Source: Scenedesmus sp. PABB004
Lineage: Eukaryota
DNA: 64,000 nt
Direction: 5' to 3'
Assembly: GCA_014905635.1 (NCBI GenBank)
Contig: JABVCE010000008.1
Coordinates: 186,001-250,000 of the forward strand
Part shown: piece after piece, positions 5,669 to 41,161 of the stretch
Position numbering within the stretch: position 1 is the first letter of the stretch
Layout of the letters: the number at the start of each line of letters is the position of its first letter
Notes under the pieces: generated by a model
What the model was told of the DNA's origin: nothing
Databases searched by the model: none
What the model saw: the letters and a program-made list of their open reading frames with translations, nothing else
Position numbers and translations under genes: made by a program

Positions 5669-5947
5669 GCGGTGTTTCTGCGCCGCTTGCGCCCTGGTCG
5701 GCGAACCGCGGCCCCTGCTCAACCCGCCCTCCCGCCCTCCGGCCCTCCTGGCAGCGCTAATTGCGTTCGCTCGCACGTCTCCGCACGCGCGGAGGCCCGG
5801 GCGCCGCGCGGCGCGCCGCGGCAGCGGCAGCGACGGCAGCAGCGCACGGCGCACCGCCGCAGCGATGGAGGAGCGCGCGGCGGGCCAGCCCCGCGCGACG
5901 GGATTGCAGTGACCGTGCTCCGCGACCAGGCTGGCCACGGGTGTGAG

Positions 5948-8755
5948 ATGCAGCAGCCCCTGGGCTATTTCGGGAGCATCACCGCAGTCACCGCCGTCGC
6001 CACGGCGCCGTCGGGCCGCGAGCTGCTCCTGGCGGGTGCGCGTCCGACGCGCCGACGCGCCTGGCCTCTCTTGTGCTGGCCAGGCTGTGCCAGCGCGCAG
6101 CTGCGCGGTGCGGCTGTGCCAGGCGGGCAGCAGCAGCGACGCACGCCGCTGTGCCGGCCCCGTGCTCGCAGGCTGCGGCGGCTGGCTGACCGTCACGGAT
6201 GTGGCGAGCCGGAAGCTGCTGGGCCGGCTGCGCCCCCTCGATGACGGCGCGCGGCTGCACGGCCTGGCCGCGTGGGCCAGCCCCGGCGTCGCCGACGGCT
6301 GCGCGGCCGGCGGCGAGCTCCTGGTCGTCGCCGCGTGGGGCGGCGGTGAGCTCAAGCTGCTCTGGCTGGCCGTGGGGAGCAGCAGCGTGGCGGTGCGCGC
6401 GGCGGCGGGGGCAGCGCTGCCCGCGGCGAGCTGGGTGCTGGACGCGCTGGTGCTGCCGCTGGGCGGCGGCGGCGAGCAGCCGCTGCCGGGCGGGCTTCCG
6501 GGCGTGACGCTGCTGGCGCTGCTGATGAGCAACCGCCTCTACGCCTGGGAAGCCCAGCCGCAGCCACGCGGCGGGCCGGGCGGCGCGGTGGCCGCGGCGG
6601 CGGCGCCGCGGCTGACGCGCACGCTGCGCGCCGCGTGCGCCAGCCGCGCGAGCCTCTACTCCGGCGCGCTGCTCGTGACGCCGGCGGCAAAAGCAGCCGG
6701 CGGCGCGGCGACGGTGTGGGTCGCCGCGGGCACGGCGTTTGGGCTCGTTCTGGTGTGGCGCGCCGCGCTCGGCGCTGGCTGCCCCGGCGACGGCTGTGAC
6801 TGCGCGGCTGAGCCGGACCCGGCGCCGGTGCTGTACAAGCTCAGCGGGCATGAGGGATCCATCCACCGCGTGCGCTGGGCGCCGCCCGAGGCGGCTGCAG
6901 ACGGTGCCGGCGGTGCGGAGGCCTTGCTCGGGAGCTGCTCCGACGACCGCACGGCGCGCCTGTGGGTGGTGCCGCTGGGGGAGCCGCCGAGCGTGGCGGG
7001 CGGCGGCGGCAGCGCAGCGCCGGGGCGCTCCGGCCTGCGCTTTGGCGGCGACGGCAGCGGCGCGCCGGACGCCGCCGTGCTGGTGCCGCTCGCGACGCTG
7101 GCGGGCCACGCCGCGCGCGTGTGGGACGTGGCGCTGCTGCCGGCGGTCTCGGCAGCTGCGGGGCGCATGCTGGCGGCGACCGCGGCCGAGGACGGCAGCG
7201 CGCGGCTGTGGGACGCGGCGGCGGGGCAGCAGCTGGCTGCGCTTCAGGTGGGCCGGAGCCTGGGCGTGCGGCGCGCTCGGTCGGGGGGCGTCCGCTGCCG
7301 ACTGCGCCCGCCACTGCGCCGCTGGGCGCAGGGCCACGCTGGTCGCGGCGTTTGGCGCTGCTGCTTCACGCCGGCCAGCCACTGCCTCGTCACAGCGGGC
7401 GCGGACGCGGCGCTGAAGCTGTGGCCCCTGCGGCAGTGGCTGGAGGCGCGGCAGCCGGAGCAGCAGCATCAGGGGAAGGCGCAGCCGGCGCCGCTGCCGG
7501 GCAGGCTGGCCCAGCCGGCGCAGCTGGCGCCGGCGGTGCGGCAGCTGCGCCTCGACGTGCCCTGGCACGGCGCCGGGCCGCACGCCGACAGCAGGAGCGA
7601 GGGCGTGCGCGCGCTCGCGCTGCCGCACCCCCGCTGGCTGCTCGTCGCGTCCAACCGCGGCGCGCTGCACGCGGTCGCGCTGGGCGCGCGCGGCGGCGCC
7701 GGGGCATGGCACCAGCTGCACGCCTGTGCGTGCGGCGGACCCTACATGACCATGGCCCTGCTGCCCACCCCTGACCGCGGCGGCGGCGGCGGCGGCGGCG
7801 GCTGCGATGTTGGCGGCGGCGGGGGCTGGGCGCGCGTGGCGCTCGGCCACCTGCGCGGCCTGGTGGAGGTCGTGGACGTTGCCCTGCCGGGCGGCGCGGT
7901 GCCGTCGGCCGCGGTGCTGGCGTCCTGGCAGGCGCACGAGCCGGGCGCGCCGGTGTGCGGCGTGTTTGCAGCCGGCGCGGCGGGCGGCGAGGGGCTGCTC
8001 ATCACGGCGGCGGCGGGCGGCGCCGGCGGCGCCCCGGGCCGCCCCGTGGCGCGGCTGTGGCGCCTGCCGCCGCGGGCGGCGGCTGCTGAGCCGCCGGCGC
8101 TGCTGGGCGAGGCGGCGCTGCCGAGCAAGGCCCGCGTGACCGCCGCCGGCGTCGTGGCGCCGGCGGGCGGCGAGGGCGAGGCGGTGCTGGTGCTGGGCAC
8201 CGAGCAGGGCAGCGTGCTGGTGTTTGCGCTACCCAGCGACTGCTGGGCGGCGCGCGGCGCCGGACGCGACGGCGGCGCGCAGCAGCTGCAGGAGCCGGCG
8301 CAGCTGCAGCTACTGCAGCGATTTGCGGGCGCGCACGGCACCAGCCACGTGAGCCTGATACAGCAGACGCAGACCCACGACGACGCCGCGGCGGCGGCCA
8401 GCTTCGTCAGCGCCGGCAGGGACGGCTGCCTGGCGAGCTACACGCTGCACGCAGCGCCGGCGGGGCGCAGCGCCGCGTGCGGCGGCGAGCAGCAGCCGCG
8501 ACCGCGCGTGGCGCTTGCAGTGACGCAGAAGCTCCGCGGTGTCGGCACGCTGCTGCACCGGGTGCGCCTTGGCGGCCCGGAGGGCGGCGCGGTGCTGCTG
8601 GGGTTTAGGGCGACGCACTGCGTCGCGTGGGACGAGGCCTCGTCCGCAGCGCTGTGGCAGCTCGAGTGCGGCGGCATGCGCCGACCGCACGCTTTTTGGT
8701 TTCGGGGCGGCGCCGAGCAGGAGCAGCAGCAGCAGGGGCAGCAGCAGCAGCAGGA

Positions 8756-8786
<31 letters not shown>

Positions 8787-10430
8787 GTGTGGCAGCAGCA
8801 GCAGCAGGGGCAGCAGCAGCAGCAGCAGGAGCAGCAGGAGCAGCTGGAGCAGGAGCAGCCGGGGCACGAGCAGCAGCACGAGGAGCGGCAGCAGCAGCAG
8901 GCGCCAGGCGAGCCGCTGCTGGCGTTTGCCTGGGCCGCTGCTGACGATGCACTGCACGTCGCCAGCCTCGGCCTGGAGCCGGCGGTGGCAGCGCTGGCGG
9001 CGGCGGCCGAGCCGCCGCGCGTCCCCGCCAGCTTGCCAGCCAGCAGTGGCCACCCTGCAGGCGGCCACCACGGCAAGGAGGTGCTGGCTGTCGTCCTGCT
9101 GCCAGGCCCGCACGGCGCCGGCGCCGGGCCGCTGGCGGTGCTGACAGCCTCGGAGGATGCCACGGTGCGCGCGGTGGTGCTGCACCGCCTGGCACCGCCC
9201 GCAGCAGGCGCGGGTGCGGGCGGCCCCACCTGCGACGCAGGCCTGGACGCGGAGGTTTGCCTGCTGGGCGCCCACGCCGCTGGCGGCGCCGCGCGGTGCC
9301 TGGACGCCGCGCGCTTGCCAGGCATCGAGCAGGCCTGGCTGGTGGTCGCCGGCTGCGCCAAGCAGGTGCTCCTCACGTGGCGCGTGTGGTGGCAGCGCCA
9401 GGAGGGCGCCGCGAGCAGAGGCCCCGCGCTGCGGCGGCGCTGGGCGCTGCGCTGGGAGGCGCTGTGCACGATGGAGCCGCCGCGCGGGCTGCGCCCGCTG
9501 TCGCGCGCGCGCGGAGCCGCCGCCGCCGCCGCCGCCGCCGCTGCCGCGGCCACTGCCAGTGGCGAGGCTCGCTTCATGGCGGTCGCGCTGCTCGACGTGC
9601 GCCCGGCGCGTGATGAGGGCGGTGGCAGTGGCTGCCCCTCTTCTGCCACTGGCTTCACCGCGCTCGCGGCGGCCGCGCTCTCGGACGGCTCACTGCAGCT
9701 GCTCACGCTGGCGCAGCCCGGCGGCGCGTGGCGGCGCGCGGCGGTGCTGTGCCACGGCGGCGGCGGCGAGGAGTTTGCTCACCCGGTGCTCTCGCTGGCA
9801 GCGCTGCGCCTGGGCGGGCACAGCGCGTGGCTGCTCGCCGCGGGCTGCACCGACGGCGGTGTGCTGCTGTACGGGCTGGGCGGCGCCGAGCTGCCGCCGC
9901 GCGACGGCGAGCCGCCGCGGCTCGCGCCGGCGCTGACGCTGCCTGGCACGCACCAGTCGGGCGTGACGGCGCTGGTGCTGGCGCCGGCGCCGGGCCCGGC
10001 CACCGCCGCCGGGTCGGCCGAGGCGTGCGGGCTGCTGCTGCTGACCGCCGGTGACGACCAGGCGCTGACGGCGACGCCGCTCGCCGCGGCGACGGCGCCG
10101 TGCGGCGCGCTGCGCGTGCTGCCCGCCGGCGCGCCGGCGCGGGCGCGCAACGCGCACGCGTCGGCCGTGCGCGGCATGGCCTACTGCCCCGAGCGCGCCC
10201 GCGCCGTCAGCGTGGGGCTGGACGAGTGCCTGCGCGGCTGGGCCGTGGCCGCGCCTGCGGGCGGCGGCCTCGAGCTGCGCGCCCTGGACGCGTGCCGCCT
10301 CGAGGTCCCGGAGCCCGCGGCGCTGGCGGTCGGCGGGGGCGTGCTGGCGGTGGCGGGGCGTGGCCTGCAGCTGCTGGCGGAGCTGTGTGAGGAGGGCGAG
10401 GACGAGGAGGCGGCGACGGCGGGCCGGTAA
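5948..10430 (+). CDS. WDR6: WD40-repeat protein, WDR6/Trm734-like (partner of the Trm7 tRNA 2'-O-methyltransferase)
   Basis: N-terminal YFGSITAV..LLLAG|CGG, then LSGHEGSIHRVRW, SCSDDRTARLW, GHAARVWDV, AEDGSARLW, GHAGRGVW, TAGADAALKLW, ECGGMRRPH, HGKEV, HQSGV, TAGDDQAL and AHASAV, in the order seen in WDR6. Introns at about 6036-6170 and 7248-7331. The start could instead be ATG 5865. Confidence 0.85.
8716..8900 (+). repeat. (CAG)n/(GAG) coding repeat, poly-Q/E insert in the WDR6-like protein
   Basis: Imperfect CAG trinucleotide tract read directly; translates as EQEQQQQGQQQQQEEQQQ... Confidence 0.9.
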
Positions 10431-34651: not shown

Positions 34652-37600
34652 TCACGCGGCGGCAGCGTCGATGGCGACGTGCACGGCGGCGTGGACGAGG
34701 TCAAGCAGCCAACTCCCTTCAAAGCCGCGCGCCGCGGCCCACGCGCCGCGCTCGCCGCCGCCGCCGCCGCGCTCGCCCGCGCTGCCGGCGCCGGCCGCGG
34801 CGCGCACCGCCGCCGCCGCCGCGAGCGCCGCGCTCGCCGCGCGGGGGGACTCGAACCGCGCCACGAGGCGCCCGTCGGGCGCGACGCTGCGCAGCTGCGC
34901 GGGCGCGCGCGCGTCGGGCGCGGCGAGCTCGGCGTCGACGCTCGCCTCAACGTCCAGATGCAGCCGCCAGCTGTGGCGGGCCTGCAGCTCGAGCAGCGCC
35001 GTGAAGGTGGCGGCGCCCCCGCGCTCAAACCGCGTCTGCGCGCCGGCGGCGGCCGCGTCGGCGGCGGTCAGCGCACGCCCCCTGGCTCGCGCCCCGTGGC
35101 TCGCGGCCGACCCACCTTGGTGCCGCCGTCGGCGGCCCTGTCGCCGAGCGTGACCGTCGTCACGCCGCCGACGAGCGGGCGGAGCTCCGGGTTCTTGAGC
35201 AGCTGGCCCAGGCTCGCCCCGTGCGCGGTGCCGATCAGGATCACGCCGCGCTGCGAGATCGTGCGCGCGGCCGCCACCTCCTGCGTGTGCGAGGCATGCC
35301 GGCGGCCGCGGTCAGCCATCGGCAGGCCGCAGGCAGCTGCAGCGCCAGGCCCGGTGCGCGCACCTCCTTGGTGCCGATCTCGTCGACGATGATGACGTCG
35401 GGCGTGTGGTTCTGCACCGCCTCCACCAGCACCGCCGCCTGCTCCTCGCGGCGGCGCACCATCAGGCGCCGCGCGTGGCCGACGCAGGGGTGGCGCTGCT
35501 CCGCGTCGCCTGGGGGGCAGCGGGCGCGGGGGCAGCAGGTCGGGCGGGCCGACGGCAGCCTGCGCGGCTGCCACCTGCCAGGCTGCCGCCGCTCAAGCGA
35601 GCTCTCTCTGGCCCCTGTCGGCGCGCACCCGCGATCTCGTTGCTCGTGTCCACGATGACCACCGCCAGCCCGAGGCCGCCCTCCTCCGGCGGCAGGCTCA
35701 GCAGGCGCGCGCAGTCGCGCAGCAGTGTGGTCTTGCCGGTGCCTGCGGCGCGCGGCCGGCGGCGCGCGGAGTCGGGCCCGCCGGCCCCACAGCGCCGCCC
35801 GCGAGCAGGTCACCGCGGCCGCACGCGCGCCCAGCGGCGCGCCTGGGCGACCGAGCAGGAGCAGGCTCTGCTGGCGCTCGGCGGCGCCGCTGAGCGAGGC
35901 CTTGAGCCAGCTCAGCACGTCGGCCAGGAGCGAGGCGACGCCCGGGACGTGGCGCCCGACGCGGAAGGTCAGCCCGGTGATGCCGCCGCCGCGGTCGCGC
36001 ATGGCGCTGATGCGGTGCAGCTGCCCCGGCACGCCCAGCCGGTTGTCGCTGCCCCAGGGGAGGTCCCACTGCTGCTCCCCCGCGCCGTCGCCCGCCGCAC
36101 CGTCGCCCGCCGCGCCGTCGCCCGCCGCGCCGTCGCCCGCCGCGCCGTCGCCCGCGGCCCACCGCTGGCGCGCCTGCGCCAGGCAGGCGAGCGCCTCGCC
36201 GACGCCCACGTCGGTGGCCAGCCGCACGCTGCTGCGGTCGGCGCGCCGCAGCGTGACCGGCTCGCCGTGGTCAATGATGACCTCCACCAGCTGCGGCTCC
36301 ACGGCGGCGTTCAGGTACGGCACAAGGTCGGCGGCGAGCCTGCGCGGCGGGCCGAGGCGGCAGCGCGTGTGATCAGCCGGGTCAGCTGGTGTGCGACGGG
36401 GAGCTCGGGAGCCGCGGCGCGTGACGTCCTGGCCTCCGGCTGCACGCTGATGGGCGAGCGCCACACGCGCGCGCACCTCGGGGGCAGCAGCTCGGCCATG
36501 CTGGCCACCGCGCCGTCGACGTTGCCGGCCGCAGGCAGCGCCAGCGCCGCCGCCGCCGCCTCGCCGCCGCCGTCGCCCGCCGCGGCCAGCAGCGCGGCGC
36601 TGCCCGACACGCCCCCGAGCGCGCAGCCACCAACGGCCTCGCCGCCACCGCCCGCCACGCCGCCGCCGCTGGGGGCGTGGTCGTCGCTGAGGAGTACCAC
36701 CAGGTCACCCGCGAACCAGCCCGGCCGCGGCGCCGACAGCCGCAGCTCAAACGCCAGGCTCGTCAGCCCCGGCCGCGCCGGCGCCGGCGCGTCGCCCACG
36801 GGCGTGAGCAGCGGGGCGTAGCCCCGCACCAGCCCCGGGCGCAGCTCGAGCCCGTCCCCGACGCGCTGCGTGAGCAGCGCCTGCACGTCCCCCAGGCGCA
36901 GCAGCGCGGCCGGCAGCTGGCGCAGCAGCGCGCCCGCGAGCGGCAGGAGCCAGCGCACGTCGTCGGCGGCGTAGCCCACCGCCTCGGGCGGCAGCGGCCG
37001 CGCCCGCCAGAGCCTGCGGCGGCGCACGGGCGGCGGCGGCGGTGTGAGCTCGGGGCGCGCGGCGCGCGCGGCACGCGCCCAGCCAGCGGCGGCCGCCGCG
37101 CGCGCGCCGCGCCGGCAGACCTCGGGTTTGCCACAAAGCTGGCGGCCATGTTCGCCTTGCTGTCGTGCGGGAAGCCGTGCGCGGCGAGCAGCCGCCCCAG
37201 GCCGGCGCGCGCGCAGGAGCGGCCGGCGCCGCCCTCGCCGGCCGCCGCGCCGAGCGCGGCGAGGCCGGCCAGGAGCTGCGTGTCGAGCACGCCGCGCAGG
37301 GAGACGCCGGCGTCGGCGAGCAGGCAGCTGTCGCGCCGCGCGTCGTGCATGACCTTGACCAGGGCGCCGTCCGACAGCTTGCCCGCGAGCTCCGACAGCG
37401 CGGCCGCCGCCGCGGCGCCGCGGCCGGCCGGGAGTTCGACCAGGTAGATCGACGCGGCCCAGCCGGGCGCGGCCGAGCCCGCGGCGGCCGGCGCGGCCGG
37501 CACAAAGAGCTGGAGCAGCGCAAGCTCGTCGTCGCGCGCGCCGGCGACGGCGCCGGCGGCCTGCGCAAACTCGGCGTCCAGGCCCACCACCGTGACCGCG

Positions 37601-38327
37601 TCCAGGTGGCGCGCCAGGCGCGCGCGCGCCGTGGCGTCGGCCTCGCCGACCACCACCGTTGGCGCGCAGGCGCAGTCGGCCGCCGTCAGCTCCGCCAGCA
37701 GGCCCAGGCCCTCGGGCAGCGGCAGCGCGCTCGGCGCCGCCGCCGCCGGAGGGCTGCCGCCGCTGCCGCCGGCGGGCGCGGCCCCGCCCGCCTCCTTGGG
37801 CATGTTGGAGGCCGCCGACGCCTCAAACAGCGTGGTCGCTGCCGCCGATGCAGCCGTCGCCGAGGAGGTGGACGAGGCGCAGGCCGTGCCTGGCTTGGCT
37901 GTCTTGGCGGCAAGCGCGGCGTTAAACGTCGCTAACAGCGATACGGCCCCGCCCGCCTTGGGCGTCTTGGTCGCAGCCCTCGCCTCAAGCAGCGCGTCTG
38001 CCGCCTCCTCCGCCGCTGCCTCCGCCGCGGCATCTGCTGTAGCCTCCGAGGCCGCCGCGTCACGCAGCAGGAGCGCGATGTCGAGGCGCACGTGCTGCGC
38101 CGGCCCGAACATAAATGTGCTGAGCCAGCGGTCGCCCGCGAGCGCCGCCGCGATGCTGCCATAGGGCTTGGGCGCGTGCGGTCCGCGTCCCTTGCGCCAA
38201 GCCTGCAGCATCGTCTCGCCTGCGGCAGCGACGGGCGAGGCGGGCGGGCCGCGCGTCACGCGCAGCGCGGTCGATTGGACGCCTGGGCAGGCGGCGCTGC
38301 CGCCACCGGCAGCGCCGGCACCAGGCG

Positions 38328-38358
<31 letters not shown>

Positions 38359-38908
38359 GCGCACCCGCGGCGGCGCTGTTGAGGGTGTAGGCAGCGGCGT
38401 CCGAGTTGACGGGGCCATTGTCGCCGACGCGCGCCGCGTCGTTGGCGTCCGCCAGCATGCGCAGCACCAGCGCGCGCCGCACCAGCCTCAAGTCCTGGCG
38501 GCACCCTGCCCAGGCCTTGCTGCTGCCCACAAAGCGCCGCAGCGCGCCGTAGCTGACGGGCGCTGCCGGCGGGCTGGTGCCCAGCTGGAGCTGGGCGCTC
38601 AGCCGCAGGACCTCGTCGCAGTCAAGCGTCACCGTCGCCTCAGAGTTTCCAAAGCGTGCCAGAAGGGCAATGCGGATGCAGCCGTGCGGGTCGCTGGCCA
38701 GCACCTCGTTGAAGCTCTTGGTGATGCCACAATCCCGCACGGTGCCGCCCAGCACCGCCTTGACGCGGTGCGCCAGGCTCGACCTGGATAGGGCCTGAAC
38801 AGCCAGCAGCCGTGCGGCGGCGTTGAGCACGCGCGTCACGGCGTCGGCGGAGCCGGGCGGCCACAGGGCGTCGATGGCTCGCAGCAGCTTGGCATCTGCG
38901 GGCGCCAT
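34652..38908 (-). CDS. Fusion protein: two winged-helix-like repeats, DEDDy 3'-5' exonuclease and Ycf45/SpoIIIAA-type AAA ATPase
   Basis: Eight exons splice in frame. Exonuclease: VVGLDAEF, ALLQL, KVMHDARRD, VLDTQL, WRARPL, YAADDV. Ycf45: DNRLGVPGQLHRISAMRDR..ITGLTFRVGR, SLLLLGRPG|TGKTTLLRD, VIVDTSNEIA|GD, EAVQNHTPDVIIVDEIG, GVILIGTAHG, LVGGVTTVTLGD. Confidence 0.88.
36084..36156 (-). repeat. 15-bp coding tandem repeat encoding (GDGAA)n inside the Ycf45 domain
   Basis: GCCGTCGCCCGCCGC units repeated four to five times; translates AAGDGAAGDGAAGDGAAGDGAG. Confidence 0.85.
38330..38358. repeat. (CA)n microsatellite in intron 1 of the exonuclease-Ycf45 gene
   Basis: About 14 CA units read directly. 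Confidence 0.9.
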
Positions 38909-39341: not shown

Positions 39342-41161
39342 TCAACCGCAGGTGCCCGCCGGCGGCACCGGCAGGCCGGGGTCGTGCAGGGACAGCCAGC
39401 GCGGCTGCGCCTCGTCGCCCGGGCCGCCCGCGTCGACGACGGCCGTGCCCCACGCCGCGCTCAGCGCCGCCAGGCGCTCCGCCACCCAGGCGCGGTCGGC
39501 GCCGCGCGCGACGTCCACCTGCGCGCGCGCCCCGCGCGGCCGGGCGATCGGGCCCGGCAGCCAGCGCTCGCCGCGCCGCGCGCGCGTGCGCGCGCTGCCG
39601 CGCCGCGCGGCCCAGCAGCAAACCAACTCACCGTCGACCAGTACGGCGGCGACTCCCCCGCGGGCCCCCACTCGTGCCGGATCGCGAGCGGCAGCGCGCG
39701 CAGCGCCGCCAGCCGCAGCCGCCCGGCGCCCGCGCCCCCGCCCGCACCCGAGGGGCGCCGCTCATAGTCGGCGGCCCAGAGCGCGCCGAGGTCATTGCGG
39801 AAGGCCGGCCTTCCGGAAGGCGCCTGGTCGGTGGCATAGTCATCGATGAACCCGCCAGCGCCGTACACGACCGCGCCGCCGCCAGGAAACAGCTGCACGC
39901 CCTGCGCGGCCGGCCGCGGCGCCGGCGTGGCGCGCGCGTGCGACGCGGCCGCAGCGCGGGGCAGTGCTGGCGCGCGCCGCGGCGCGCCTGGATGTGGTGC
40001 GCGCTGTGGCCGAACACCAGGTCCGCGCCCGCCGCCAGGAACGAAGCGCCGAGCTCCTGCGCGGGCAGCGTGGTTGCGCGGCGGGGTGGGCTCTCTCGGT
40101 CCCCAGCGCCGCGGCTGCCCCCGCGGGCGGCGCGCCCCGCGCGCGCGCCACGACCGCGCGCCTGCAGCTGCGCGTCGGGCTCCCACCGCCAGTTGGGTCC
40201 CCAGTGCACTGACGCGACGACCAGCTCGGCGCCGCCGGCGCGCGCGGCCGCCACGTCGCGGCGCAGGCGCGCGGGGTCGGCCCTGCGCCCGGCGGCGGTC
40301 GCCGGCAGTCTCAAGGCATGACCGATCACTCACCAGCCGCTGGCAGCGGCCGCCCCGCACGCGCTCGAGCTCGCGCCGCGCCTGCCTCTGCCCTTGGCGC
40401 CCCCCACCCCCCCTGCTTGCCTGGCCGGGTTGATGAAATTGATGCCGGGCGAGGCCGCGCCCGCCGCCCAGTCGGCGTAGTGGTCGGCATACGCGAGCAA
40501 GCCGACCTGCGCACATGTGGGCCGGGAGGGGGAGCTCAGGGGCGCAGGACCGTCAAGGGCGGGGCGGGCCGAGGCGGCCCGCGCGTGCGCTCCGGCCGCG
40601 CACGCTGGCGCGCACCGTGACGCCGCCGCGCGACACGAGCACGGGCGCGGCCGCGGCGGCGGCGTCCTCGCCCGACCCCGCGTGCGCCACGCGCGCGGCG
40701 TCGAGCGCGCGCCACGTGTCGCGCGCCCCAGGGACGCCGTAGTCCAGGACGTGGTTGTTCGCGGTGCTCACGACGCCCAGCCGCAGCTCCGCCAGCGCGC
40801 CCGCGGCGGCGTCGGCGGGGAGCCTGAAGTTGAAGGCCTTGGGCGTGGGCGTGTCGTGCGACGTGACTGCGGCCGCGCGCGGCGGCGGCGGACCGTCGCA
40901 CGGGTACCCGCGCGCTGCCGGCGCGGGCGCCGCCGCCGCAGCAACGGGCTATCTTGCGGCCGCCAGCCACCCACTCGCGGTCTCGAGGTTGCCGACGACC
41001 AGCGTGCGCTCCGGGTGCGCGTGCAGCACCGGCAGCACGCCGGCGAACGCGGCGCGAGCGCGGCGCTGCTGGCTGAGCTGCTCCCCGACGAGTCGCCCCA
41101 GCATGATGTCGCCCAGCAGCAGGAGCCGAACACTGCTGGCGGGCGGGCAGGGCAGCGCCAT
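39342..41161 (-). CDS. CapA/PGA_cap-family metallophosphoesterase
   Basis: VRLLLLGDIMLGRLV, VGNLETA|VT, PKAFNFR, STANNHVLDYG, AHAGSG, ADHYADWAA, VASVHWGPNW, ADLVFGHSAHHIQ|GV, VYGAGGFIDDY and FRNDLG. About six introns. Confidence 0.88.

Follow-up and report, generated by a model that had tools for sequence, protein, structure and literature searches.

The window, a 64,000-nucleotide stretch of a Scenedesmus sp. PABB004 contig, is very GC-rich (75–83% GC) and contains 158 stop-free frames of at least 250 amino acids on its two strands, so open frames by themselves are uninformative here. On the minus strand, from 38908 to 34652, eight exons join in frame, as the initial annotation had proposed. 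The joined frame is 3486 nt long, has a single terminal stop, and encodes a protein of 1161 amino acids. In this frame, every exon has GC3 of 0.88–1.00 versus GC2 of 0.39–0.65, and the codon position with high GC changes frame at the introns. Six of the seven junctions are bridged by gap-free alignments to homologs (for the exon 2/3 join, by an exonuclease profile). The locus is a real gene, and very probably one nuclear gene.

All of the features that follow are on the minus strand. Exon 1 (38908–38365; amino acids 1–181 plus 1 nt) starts with the first in-frame ATG, at 38908, and encodes the N-terminal region; its GC3 is 0.88 and its GC2 is 0.55. Intron 1 (38220–38364, 145 nt, GT-AG) contains a (GT)14 microsatellite (38331–38358). 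The high-GC3 frame shifts at this intron, and reading through it leads to a stop at 38060. The evidence for exon 1 and junction 1 comes entirely from codon-position GC; amino acids 1–260 are matched by no homolog. Exon 2 (38219–37121; amino acids 182–548, with split codons at its ends) encodes an Ala/Ser-rich linker and most of an exonuclease domain, which is split by intron 2 (37014–37120). Exon 3 (37013–36477; amino acids 548–727) encodes the ExoIII motif, a linker module with helices and a beta-hairpin, a segment rich in Gly and Ala, and the beginning of an ATPase's N-domain (MAELLPPR...). Exon 4 (36339–35843; amino acids 727–893) encodes the ATPase's N-terminal domain and the first half of Walker A (GRPG). 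It carries an (AAGDG)5 insert at 36158–36084, where TRF reports a 15-nt repeat with 5.1 copies (36080–36155). The second half of Walker A (TGKT) and the sequence VDTSNEI are in exon 5 (35742–35629; amino acids 893–931), Walker B is in exon 6 (35509–35364; amino acids 931–979), and a GTAHG motif is in exon 7 (35280–35116; amino acids 980–1034). Exon 8 (35035–34652; amino acids 1035–1161) encodes the conserved beta region that follows the ATPase and a short C-terminal tail, and ends with TGA at 34654–34652.

At each of junctions 3 to 7, the alignment to homologs is free of gaps. Intron 4 (35743–35842, 100 nt) has a GC donor (CCAG/GCGCGC), which was overlooked in the initial annotation, and an AG acceptor. 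An alternative GT donor lies 18 nt downstream and in frame, but its use would add six residues inside the P-loop, and no such insert is present in any homolog in alignment A1. Joining at the GC donor gives GRPGTGKT, which aligns without gaps to GPPGAGKT, GRPGSGKT, and GPPGVGKT from homologs. (Across 63 sequences, G621, P623, and K627 of the homolog P0094 are invariant.)

We considered that this model might join two adjacent genes, or be otherwise mis-joined, with an exonuclease gene next to a separate ATPase gene. The model of the locus is built from DNA alone; there is an in-frame methionine at amino acid 720, just ahead of the ATPase's N-domain; and some relatives have an unfused ATPase, such as P0058 (488 amino acids) and P0151 from Balamuthia (508 amino acids). 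However, the two halves are separated by intron 3, a GT-AG intron of just 137 nt (in the 36339–36477 interval), versus intergenic gaps of about 430 nt on each side of the gene. Also, the coding-type GC3 of exon 3 continues to its donor, and the first methionine of exon 4 is not before amino acid 840. Homolog alignments cross the exon 3/4 join (P0008, P0058, and P0038, the last from amino acid 624), and other genomes, as well as a complete transcript ORF, carry this fusion too. Together with the continuous frame, this evidence argues for one gene, and we consider two genes to be very improbable.

The exonuclease domain (amino acids 382–581; 36914–37620) is predicted to be an intact 3'-5' exonuclease of the DEDDy type, with a complete active site. 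All of the DEDDy positions that had been listed from the sequence are present: D396 and E398 of ExoI (37578–37570) within LDAEF (amino acids 395–399), D478 of ExoII (37332–37330) within HDARRD (amino acids 473–478), and Y562 (36973–36971) and D566 (36961–36959) of ExoIII within YAADD (amino acids 562–566). In an alignment with seven fused homologs, these five residues fall in the D-x-E, H-x4-D, and Y-x3-D columns. When the exons were run separately, Pfam's DNA_pol_A_exo1 (PF01612) matched exon 2 with 20.3 bits (profile positions 11–113) and exon 3 with 18.7 bits (profile positions 141–172); these single-exon pieces are collinear, and both are under the gathering score of 23.6. We also compared the joined model to a family profile of the exonuclease domains of the seven fused homologs that pass Pfam, with the window's gene left out. 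The score was 80.1 bits over amino acids 382–581, in an alignment that is gap-free where exons 2 and 3 join, while the best of 500 shuffles reached 0.6 bits.

The C-terminal half, as judged from its sequence and from the model of a homolog, appears to be an ATPase of SpoIIIAA/Ycf45 type that belongs to the PilT/VirB11 class of ring motors and has kept its own N-domain. The ATPase had been described as intact, and indeed, Walker A (GRPGTGKT, amino acids 890–897, with K896 at 35734–35732), Walker B (IIVDEIG, amino acids 970–976, with D973/E974 at 35384–35379), and GTAHG (amino acids 996–1000; 35232–35218) are all present. TIGR02858 (spore_III_AA) matches exon 5 (E = 8.4e-5, profile positions 124–161), with collinear pieces in exon 6 (positions 184–209) and exon 7 (positions 211–247). 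Pfam's Spore_III_AA also matches exon 5 (profile positions 156–189). With exon 4 as the query, 962 library proteins were found at E ≤ 0.001. The joined model aligns to homologs with up to 425.6 bits overall (289.9 bits for the best single ATPase domain), and these alignments extend to amino acids 1104–1136 in exon 8. Over 245 ATPase columns, the window's protein is 60% identical to P0156.

Canonical Ycf45 proteins (Spore_III_AA, a PTPase-like domain PF25516, and R3H) have a homologous ATPase core and N-domain, with Walker A, VDTSNEI, Walker B, and GTAHG in common, and in the ATPase region, their identity to the fused homolog P0097 is 53–58%. Unlike them, the window's protein has a 715-amino-acid N-terminal extension with the exonuclease, belongs to a separate clade, and lacks both PF25516 and R3H. 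The absence of a C-terminal R3H had been noticed from the sequence, and a Pfam scan of the eight exon translations at E ≤ 1 found neither R3H (PF01424) nor PF25516; for exon 8, it found no family at all. (PF25516 is present in P0161 and P0179, and R3H is present in most of the canonical or cyanobacterial relatives listed.)

In the model of P0094, pLDDT is mostly above 90 in the ATPase part, which has a two-domain fold (an N-domain and a RecA-like core) like that of solved secretion ATPases (Foldseek E ~1e-10). Foldseek matches to this model include PilF, PilT, PilU, VirB11, DotB, FlaI, and an archaeal PilT-like Holliday-junction helicase, with E of about 1e-10 to 1e-9. By sequence, P0097 matches PilT with E = 4.8e-6, and Pfam's T2SSE matches several homologs. 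In this fold and in the homologs' Spore_III_AA and T2SSE matches, the ATPase resembles SpoIIIAA and the ring ATPases PilT, PilB, VirB11, DotB, and FlaI. Those motors power pili, secretion, or a sporulation channel and have membrane partners, whereas here we saw no membrane segment or partner, and a nuclease is attached instead.

Motifs, profiles, and fused homologs uphold the proposed single chain of a DEDDy exonuclease and a Ycf45/SpoIIIAA-type ATPase without R3H. The fusion is not unique to this gene. It was also found in a hypothetical protein from the chytrid Synchytrium microbalum (P0097), in a complete transcript-derived ORF from EukProt (P0094), and in Logan contigs; the initial annotation had suspected similar unannotated fusions in other algae, and they occur beyond algae too. 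In a Pfam scan of 26 long hits, PF01612 and PF19568 were found together in four, and two more have PF01612 and end at or just after Walker A. (P0153 has both PF01612 and PF19568.) Our literature searches found no paper describing the fusion, which agrees with the earlier statement that no functional description was known, and by these searches the architecture is not that of an already characterised family. As judged from these homologs, the family is conserved, uncharacterised, and spread over distant eukaryotes.

In a tree of the ATPase domain with 59 rows, the window's protein is in a 33-row clade (SH-aLRT 99) that contains every exonuclease-fused row and is apart from the canonical set, namely cyanobacterial-type Ycf45 (most with R3H) and two plant homologs. 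We asked if the protein might be a chloroplast-imported Ycf45 paralog that works on the maturation of plastid RNA, either alongside canonical Ycf45 or in its place. In favor of this reading, its ATPase core has homologs in the Ycf45 of cyanobacteria and plastids, and it comes from what is probably a green alga, with the nearest named relative being from Nannochloris. However, the clade also includes proteins from the chytrid and from Balamuthia, both of which lack plastids, and the sequence between 38909 and the upstream gene's stop at 39342 shows no coding signal that could supply an added presequence. A plastid role of this kind therefore seems quite unlikely. In a 2009 table, YCF45 homologs are given for Naegleria gruberi and Phytophthora ramorum (PMC3087521); together with the chytrid and Balamuthia proteins in the clade, this favors a non-plastid role.

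The N-terminal half is probably an Egalitarian-like module, with an N-terminal region, the DEDDy exonuclease, and a short helical and beta-hairpin linker. In all three of the fused homologs tested, the exonuclease's best solved match was Drosophila Egalitarian (Egl; PDB 9uju, 9rvy–9rwb), a fly mRNA-transport protein (E = 3.1e-22 for P0094, 9.5e-22 for P0097, and 2.6e-16 for P0153). Egl chains are also the top-ranked Foldseek matches to the model of P0094 (E = 1.9e-12). Trypanosoma brucei RNase D (PDB 7c42–7c4c) and EXD1 (5fiq/5fis) come after Egl in the homolog lists; these and Rrp6/EXOSC10 are the next-closest solved DEDDy domains, but their matches are at least 10 orders of magnitude weaker, and none of them is fused to a ring ATPase. 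(According to the entry titles, RNase D and Rrp6 were crystallised with RNA or nucleotides.) So the earlier pointer to an Egalitarian/EXD1-type exonuclease was apt, with EXD1 lower in the lists. The window's own exonuclease piece from exon 2 matches Egl with E = 0.48 over 36 residues, and its Pfam pieces are below the gathering score, so the kinship with Egl rests on the homologs and on the family profile.

Egl differs from the window's protein in having no ATPase, and to our knowledge, its BicD-binding and dynein-light-chain-binding regions are not expected outside animals. As described in PMC13186709, Egl comprises LOTUS-like winged-helix domains, an exonuclease-homology domain, and a helical adjacent domain; the LOTUS-like domains, ExoHD, and XAD jointly bind RNA; and Egl binds BicD and dynein light chain and is an adaptor for double-stranded RNA localisation signals.

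The initial annotation also proposed two LOTUS-like domains, which Egl has, but we detected none in the window's protein. In exon 1 (181 amino acids) and the first 106 amino acids of exon 2, no Pfam family matched at E ≤ 10, LOTUS/OST-HTH (PF12872) included. An Atlas search with the N-terminal region gave no usable match, a single-sequence AlphaFold model of it has pLDDT of 39, and hhalign against the N-termini of homologs gave probabilities of at most 0.2. The homologs' N-termini gave leads to OST-HTH/LOTUS and WHD_Egal, from Atlas structures and features among others, all of them sub-threshold; one of the four typed N-termini has an OST-HTH score of 22.9 bits, below the threshold of 23.8. 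(The N-terminus of the P0094 model has pLDDT below 50.) The N-terminal region is fast-evolving, and a winged-helix or LOTUS-like fold is possible.

We propose, with about even confidence, that an ATP-driven ring motor is coupled to an Egl-like module for RNA binding and 3' trimming. The ATPase would assemble as a ring, like its structural relatives, and ATP would power it in gripping, threading, or unfolding single-stranded RNA or an RNP. The Egl-like module tethered to the motor would recognise the RNA, and the exonuclease, with its active site intact here, would trim it from the 3' end. The result would be an ATP-dependent machine for RNA 3'-end processing or decay, probably outside the plastid. 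The R3H domain in most of the canonical relatives listed and the RNA-binding domains of Egl point to a nucleic-acid context, which fits this mechanism. On the other hand, the ring motors related to this ATPase mostly drive protein machines (pili, secretion) rather than acting on nucleic acids, which we count against our proposal. ATP-coupled 3'-5' trimming might serve in surveillance, silencing, or defence, as was initially suggested; nothing points specifically to a role in antiviral defence.

The D-x-E, H-x4-D, and Y-x3-D motifs are complete in the window's protein and in seven fused homologs (P0094, P0097, P0075, P0052, P0031, P0150, and P0153). Five other relatives (P0155 from Nannochloris, P0156, P0134, P0101, and P0008) retain a degenerate remnant of the exonuclease fold, with substitutions at ExoII and/or ExoIII positions or with ExoI missing; the exonucleases of the green-algal relatives are degenerate. 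So we also considered that the protein might be an RNA-binding adaptor or remodeller with no nuclease action. The exonuclease fold would be an RNA-recognition surface, as in Egalitarian and EXD1, the ring ATPase would remodel or move bound RNPs, and the catalytic residues would be kept incidentally, or for binding metal or 3' ends. Egl itself is a precedent, as its putative catalytic residues are about 15 Å from the bound RNA, and neither RNA binding in vitro nor function in vivo requires them (PMC13186709). Together with the five degenerate relatives, this weakens trimming as a family-wide rule. However, retention of the full catalytic set across very distant lineages speaks for catalysis being under selection in that subset, and among the solved relatives, the second closest, an RNase D, was crystallised with RNA U12 (according to the entry titles). 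We view a purely binding role as possible but doubtful.

Returning to the proposed trimming machine, WRN offers a functional analogy: it too combines an NTP-driven motor for nucleic acids with a PF01612-type DEDDy exonuclease in one polypeptide. WRN's motor is an SF2 RecQ helicase that acts on DNA, whereas the motor here is of the PilT/SpoIIIAA class. A WRN-like role in DNA repair or recombination, with a PilT-like ring translocase or branch-migration motor and an exonuclease of the proofreading or resection type, would fit some of the evidence. Foldseek places an archaeal "RuvB-like Holliday junction helicase" with a PilT-like fold ninth among the matches to the P0094 model (5f4h, E = 9.1e-11), canonical relatives go by the name "single-stranded DNA-binding protein" in some sources, and the description of PF01612 includes DNA exonucleases. 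But action on DNA seems unlikely: the nearest solved relatives of the exonuclease (Egl, T. brucei RNase D, EXD1, and Rrp6/EXOSC10) all have entry names that associate them with RNA, and the LOTUS/OST-HTH leads in the homologs' N-termini, although sub-threshold, suggest RNA.

Because the window is 75–83% G+C in each 2-kb bin and contains 158 stop-free frames of at least 250 amino acids (counting both strands), an open frame here is no evidence of a gene. Unlike open frames, the GC content of each codon position does carry coding information in this genome. The eight exons that the initial annotation had joined in frame (38908–38365, 38219–37121, 37013–36477, 36339–35843, 35742–35629, 35509–35364, 35280–35116, and 35035–34652, all on the minus strand) were rejoined from the sequence by a script. 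The same model resulted: a frame of 3,486 nt with one stop, at its end, encoding 1,161 amino acids. Within this frame, GC3 is 0.88–1.00 and GC2 is 0.39–0.65 in each exon, and the codon position richest in GC shifts at the introns in line with the model. Between the upstream gene and the start codon (ATG 38908) there is no other in-frame ATG. Reading through intron 1 was ruled out: the GC3 signal disappears and a stop is reached at 38060. (Intron 1 also contains a perfect microsatellite, (CA)14 or (GT)14 by strand, at 38331–38358.)

Six of the introns have GT-AG borders and lengths of 80–145 nt. Intron 4 (35743–35842, minus strand) has a GC donor instead (CCAG/GCGCGC), which the initial annotation did not mention, and interrupts the Walker A codons. 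There is a GT donor in frame 18 nt farther downstream, but we rejected it: its use would insert six residues into the P-loop, and no homolog has them. In our alignment of 63 homologs, G621, P623, and K627 of P0094 (a complete open reading frame from a EukProt transcript) are invariant, and the P-loop has no insert. Across the GC-donor join, SLLLLGRPGTGKTTLLRD of the model aligns without gaps to SLLVLGPPGAGKTTLLRD of the homolog P0058. If the GT donor were used, it would give an isoform with a P-loop insert. Alternatively, the GC may reflect a T-to-C variant or an error at the donor.

The other joins were compared with protein families. With exons run separately, Pfam's exonuclease family DNA_pol_A_exo1 (PF01612) matches exon 2 at profile positions 11–113 (20.3 bits) and, collinearly, exon 3 at positions 141–172 (18.7 bits); both scores fall short of the gathering score (23.6). 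NCBIfam's TIGR02858 (spore_III_AA) is collinear across exons 5, 6, and 7 (positions 124–161, 184–209, and 211–247). A profile built from the exonuclease domains of seven fused homologs, with the studied gene excluded, matches the joined model at 80.1 bits (amino acids 382–581) and has no gap at the join of exons 2 and 3; the best of 500 shuffled controls scored 0.6 bits. Junctions 3 to 7 are spanned by contiguous alignments of the model to the retrieved homologs (phmmer). Exon 1 and junction 1 found no homolog support when amino acids 1–260 of the model were compared to the homologs with phmmer; their basis is codon-position GC alone. The predicted model forms one coding unit, and it seems extremely improbable that these exons belong to two separate genes.

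The exonuclease half contains LDAEF (D396 and E398), HDARRD (D478), and YAADD (Y562 and D566), which fall in the alignment columns that hold D-x-E, H-x4-D, and Y-x3-D in the fused homologs. This is the complete DEDDy catalytic set that the initial annotation described. The ATPase that it considered intact is also complete: GRPGTGKT (Walker A, with K896), VDTSNEI, IIVDEIG (Walker B, with D973 and E974), and GTAHG. Judging from these motifs, both halves of the predicted protein have all of their catalytic residues. Canonical cyanobacterial Ycf45 proteins combine Spore_III_AA with a PTPase-like domain (PF25516) and R3H. In contrast, neither PF25516 nor R3H was found in any exon of the studied gene at E ≤ 1 (Pfam), which bears out the earlier report that R3H is missing. 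Direct searches of PDB sequences with exons 2 and 4 gave only low-complexity noise; in a word-index search, exon 2 had no match at all and P0094 matched only itself. Within the N-domain of the ATPase, a 15-nt unit repeated 5.1 times (96% matches, at 36080–36155) encodes (AAGDG)5, and P0058 also has a low-complexity insert there.

Searching 1.84 billion representative proteins with exon 4 (HMMER) identified 962 proteins at E ≤ 0.001. Four of the 26 long matches have both PF01612 and PF19568 (Pfam): P0097, a hypothetical protein from the chytrid Synchytrium microbalum, as well as P0094, P0075, and P0052. Another two of the 26, P0031 and P0150, have PF01612 and end at or just past Walker A. P0153, which was found by a separate search, also has both families. 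Using a profile that included the studied gene, we found an exonuclease domain, whole or partial, in 18 of 269 retrieved proteins. The exonuclease-ATPase family includes proteins from a chytrid and from green algae; an unfused relative is P0151 from Balamuthia.

We built a quick maximum-likelihood tree of 59 ATPase domains (all 28 rows of the first search that cover at least 225 of the 266 query positions, 6 split rows, 24 of 113 canonical sequences, and the studied protein). The studied protein falls in a 33-row clade (SH-aLRT 99) that contains all of the exonuclease-fused rows and excludes the canonical set. Its place inside this clade is not fixed by the tree; the closest sequence by ATPase identity is P0156, at 60% over 245 columns. 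These sequence comparisons place the predicted protein in a eukaryotic clade of ATPases resembling Ycf45, one that has been repeatedly fused to an exonuclease of the type found in Drosophila Egalitarian (Egl). That it is instead a plastid paralog is very unlikely. YCF45 homologs from Naegleria gruberi and Phytophthora ramorum appear in a 2009 table (PMC3087521). P0003 (1,753 amino acids) accounts for two rows of the tree, P0003a and P0003b, as it contains one Ycf45-like ATPase unit followed by a second that is almost identical; the cause would be either a tandem duplication or the merging of two genes by a gene caller.

By sequence, Egl is the best match among solved structures for all three of the fused homologs tested (E = 3.1e-22, 9.5e-22, and 2.6e-16), followed by RNase D from T. 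brucei (E of about 1e-9 to 1e-11). EXD1 is in the match lists of all three homologs, and Rrp6/EXOSC10 is only in P0094's. The studied gene's own exon 2 piece matches Egl at E = 0.48. An AlphaFold model of P0094, computed with the 63-sequence alignment, has a mean pLDDT of 76.6, with most of the exonuclease and ATPase above 90. When this model was compared to the PDB with Foldseek, Egl chains were at the top (E = 1.9e-12). To our knowledge, the solved Egalitarian complexes contain the Drosophila protein in every case. Below Egl, at E of about 1e-10 to 1e-9, RNase D and Rrp6 are interspersed with PilF, PilT, PilU, VirB11, DotB, and FlaI. As modelled in P0094, the ATPase shows a PilT-class fold. 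A predicted complex of the exonuclease part of P0094 with its ATPase part had a median score of 0.32 (the mark being 0.34), and one control had 0.31, which weighs neither for nor against.

We propose, with about even confidence, that the protein is an ATP-driven ring motor coupled to an Egl-like module that reads RNA and trims its 3′ end. The ATPase would assemble as a ring, after its structural relatives, and would spend ATP on holding, threading, or unfolding RNA. The Egl-like module would read the RNA and, where its active site is intact, as in the studied protein, would trim the 3′ end. The same group of Foldseek matches includes an archaeal PilT-like Holliday-junction helicase (E of about 1e-10 to 1e-9), so we also considered a role in DNA repair or recombination, which seems distinctly unlikely.

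All three exonuclease motifs are kept in eight proteins (the studied protein, P0094, P0097, P0075, P0052, P0031, P0150, and P0153). Another five relatives match the exonuclease profile yet carry substitutions: P0155, a hypothetical protein from the green alga Nannochloris sp. 'desiccata' (HDCRWL and FISHD, with ExoI not aligned), P0156 (HDSRWL and FLAAQ), P0134 (YDAGAV), P0101 (YDVHRL and AAAAN), and P0008 (HG-RQA). In these five, an exonuclease remnant that has lost catalytic residues of ExoII and/or ExoIII lies ahead of the ATPase. P0155 and P0156 are in a starred subclade of the ATPase tree with P0152, P0154, and P0032. Since the motifs are intact in the studied protein and substituted in P0155, the former would be "active-type" and its nearest named relative among green algae "inactive-type." The five remnants parallel Egalitarian and EXD1, which have inactive exonuclease folds. 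In Egl, according to PMC13186709, stem-loop RNA is held by three LOTUS-like winged-helix domains acting together with an exonuclease-homology domain and, next to it, a tetrahelical one; Egl's putative catalytic residues are about 15 Å away from the RNA and are dispensable. Both Egl itself and the relatives with degenerate exonucleases favor another explanation, that the protein is a non-catalytic RNA adaptor or remodeller. We consider this somewhat unlikely for the protein, and prefer the trimming motor.

The initial annotation also described two LOTUS-like domains at the N-terminus, which we could not confirm in the studied protein. At E ≤ 10, no Pfam family matched exon 1 or the initial 106 amino acids of exon 2, an Atlas search with exon 1 gave no usable match, and the single-sequence AlphaFold model of exon 1 was unusable (pLDDT 39.2). 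Comparing the N-terminus to a rough, poor alignment of the homologs' N-terminal repeats with hhalign gave a probability of at most 0.2. Among the homologs, OST-HTH scored 22.9 bits (cut-off 23.8) in one of four typed N-termini, and Atlas matched N-termini to TDRD5, OST-HTH, and WHD_Egal clusters, all below the tool's bar. These signals are only leads. As pLDDT is below 50 at amino acids 1–175 of P0094, its N-terminus says nothing for or against LOTUS domains. 

A broader reading is that the family is an ancient, eukaryote-wide, ATP-driven machine for RNA 3′ ends, a single polypeptide that combines a LOTUS-like reader with an Egl-type DEDDy exonuclease and a PilT-class ring motor, and that animal Egalitarian derives from it, having shed the motor and no longer needing catalysis. 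We think that this is unlikely. If it held, it would offer a first clue to the mechanism of the Ycf45 ATPases, long unexplained, which would be nucleic-acid translocases, and Nannochloris and other lineages whose exonucleases have degenerated would be repeating Egl's route from enzyme to adaptor.

Ycf45 is a conserved open reading frame of cyanobacteria and of plastid genomes, and SPD1 is presumably a homolog of it. The function of SPD1 is described as unknown (PMC6180158), and one 2026 table has Ycf45 as a hypothetical protein with function "?" (PMC13139465). The joining of an Egl-type exonuclease to a Ycf45-type ring ATPase connects Ycf45 and Egalitarian in one family, which suggests that the ATPase would act on nucleic acids and that the Egl module would be far older than animals. 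All of the domains were already known, and the architecture is not unique to this genome. As the initial annotation guessed, similar fusions are in public databases, labelled "hypothetical protein" (including the chytrid's P0097) or "AAA+ ATPase domain-containing protein." It knew of no functional description, and our search of one open-access library likewise found no description of a fusion of an exonuclease with Ycf45/SpoIIIAA. The accessible text of the OST-HTH paper (PMC2848206) does not contain the terms ATPase, Egalitarian, SpoIIIAA, or R3H. Three features are specific to the studied gene: a long N-terminal extension with no recognisable domain, a GC-AG intron that interrupts the P-loop codons, and exonuclease motifs that appear fully intact, where the named relative from its lineage has an apparently dead exonuclease. 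With active-site motifs complete in both halves, the protein offers an enzymatic entry point, as a nuclease that could be assayed with and without ATP, and the green-algal relatives with putatively dead exonucleases are a natural contrast between catalytic and adaptor roles.

On either side of the gene is a spacer of about 430 nt that lacks codon periodicity. Upstream, on the same strand, is a coding frame at 39342–39761 (minus strand), with its stop at 39344–39342. The downstream gene, also on the minus strand, starts at ATG 34224 and encodes a hydrophobic, signal-peptide-like N-terminus. The neighbouring frames have no Pfam family at E ≤ 1e-5 and gave nothing bearing on the studied gene's function. 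Elsewhere in the window, a long open frame at 5913–10427 (plus strand) encodes WD40 repeats (Pfam WD40, E = 3.4e-19) and probably belongs to a WD-repeat gene with several exons.
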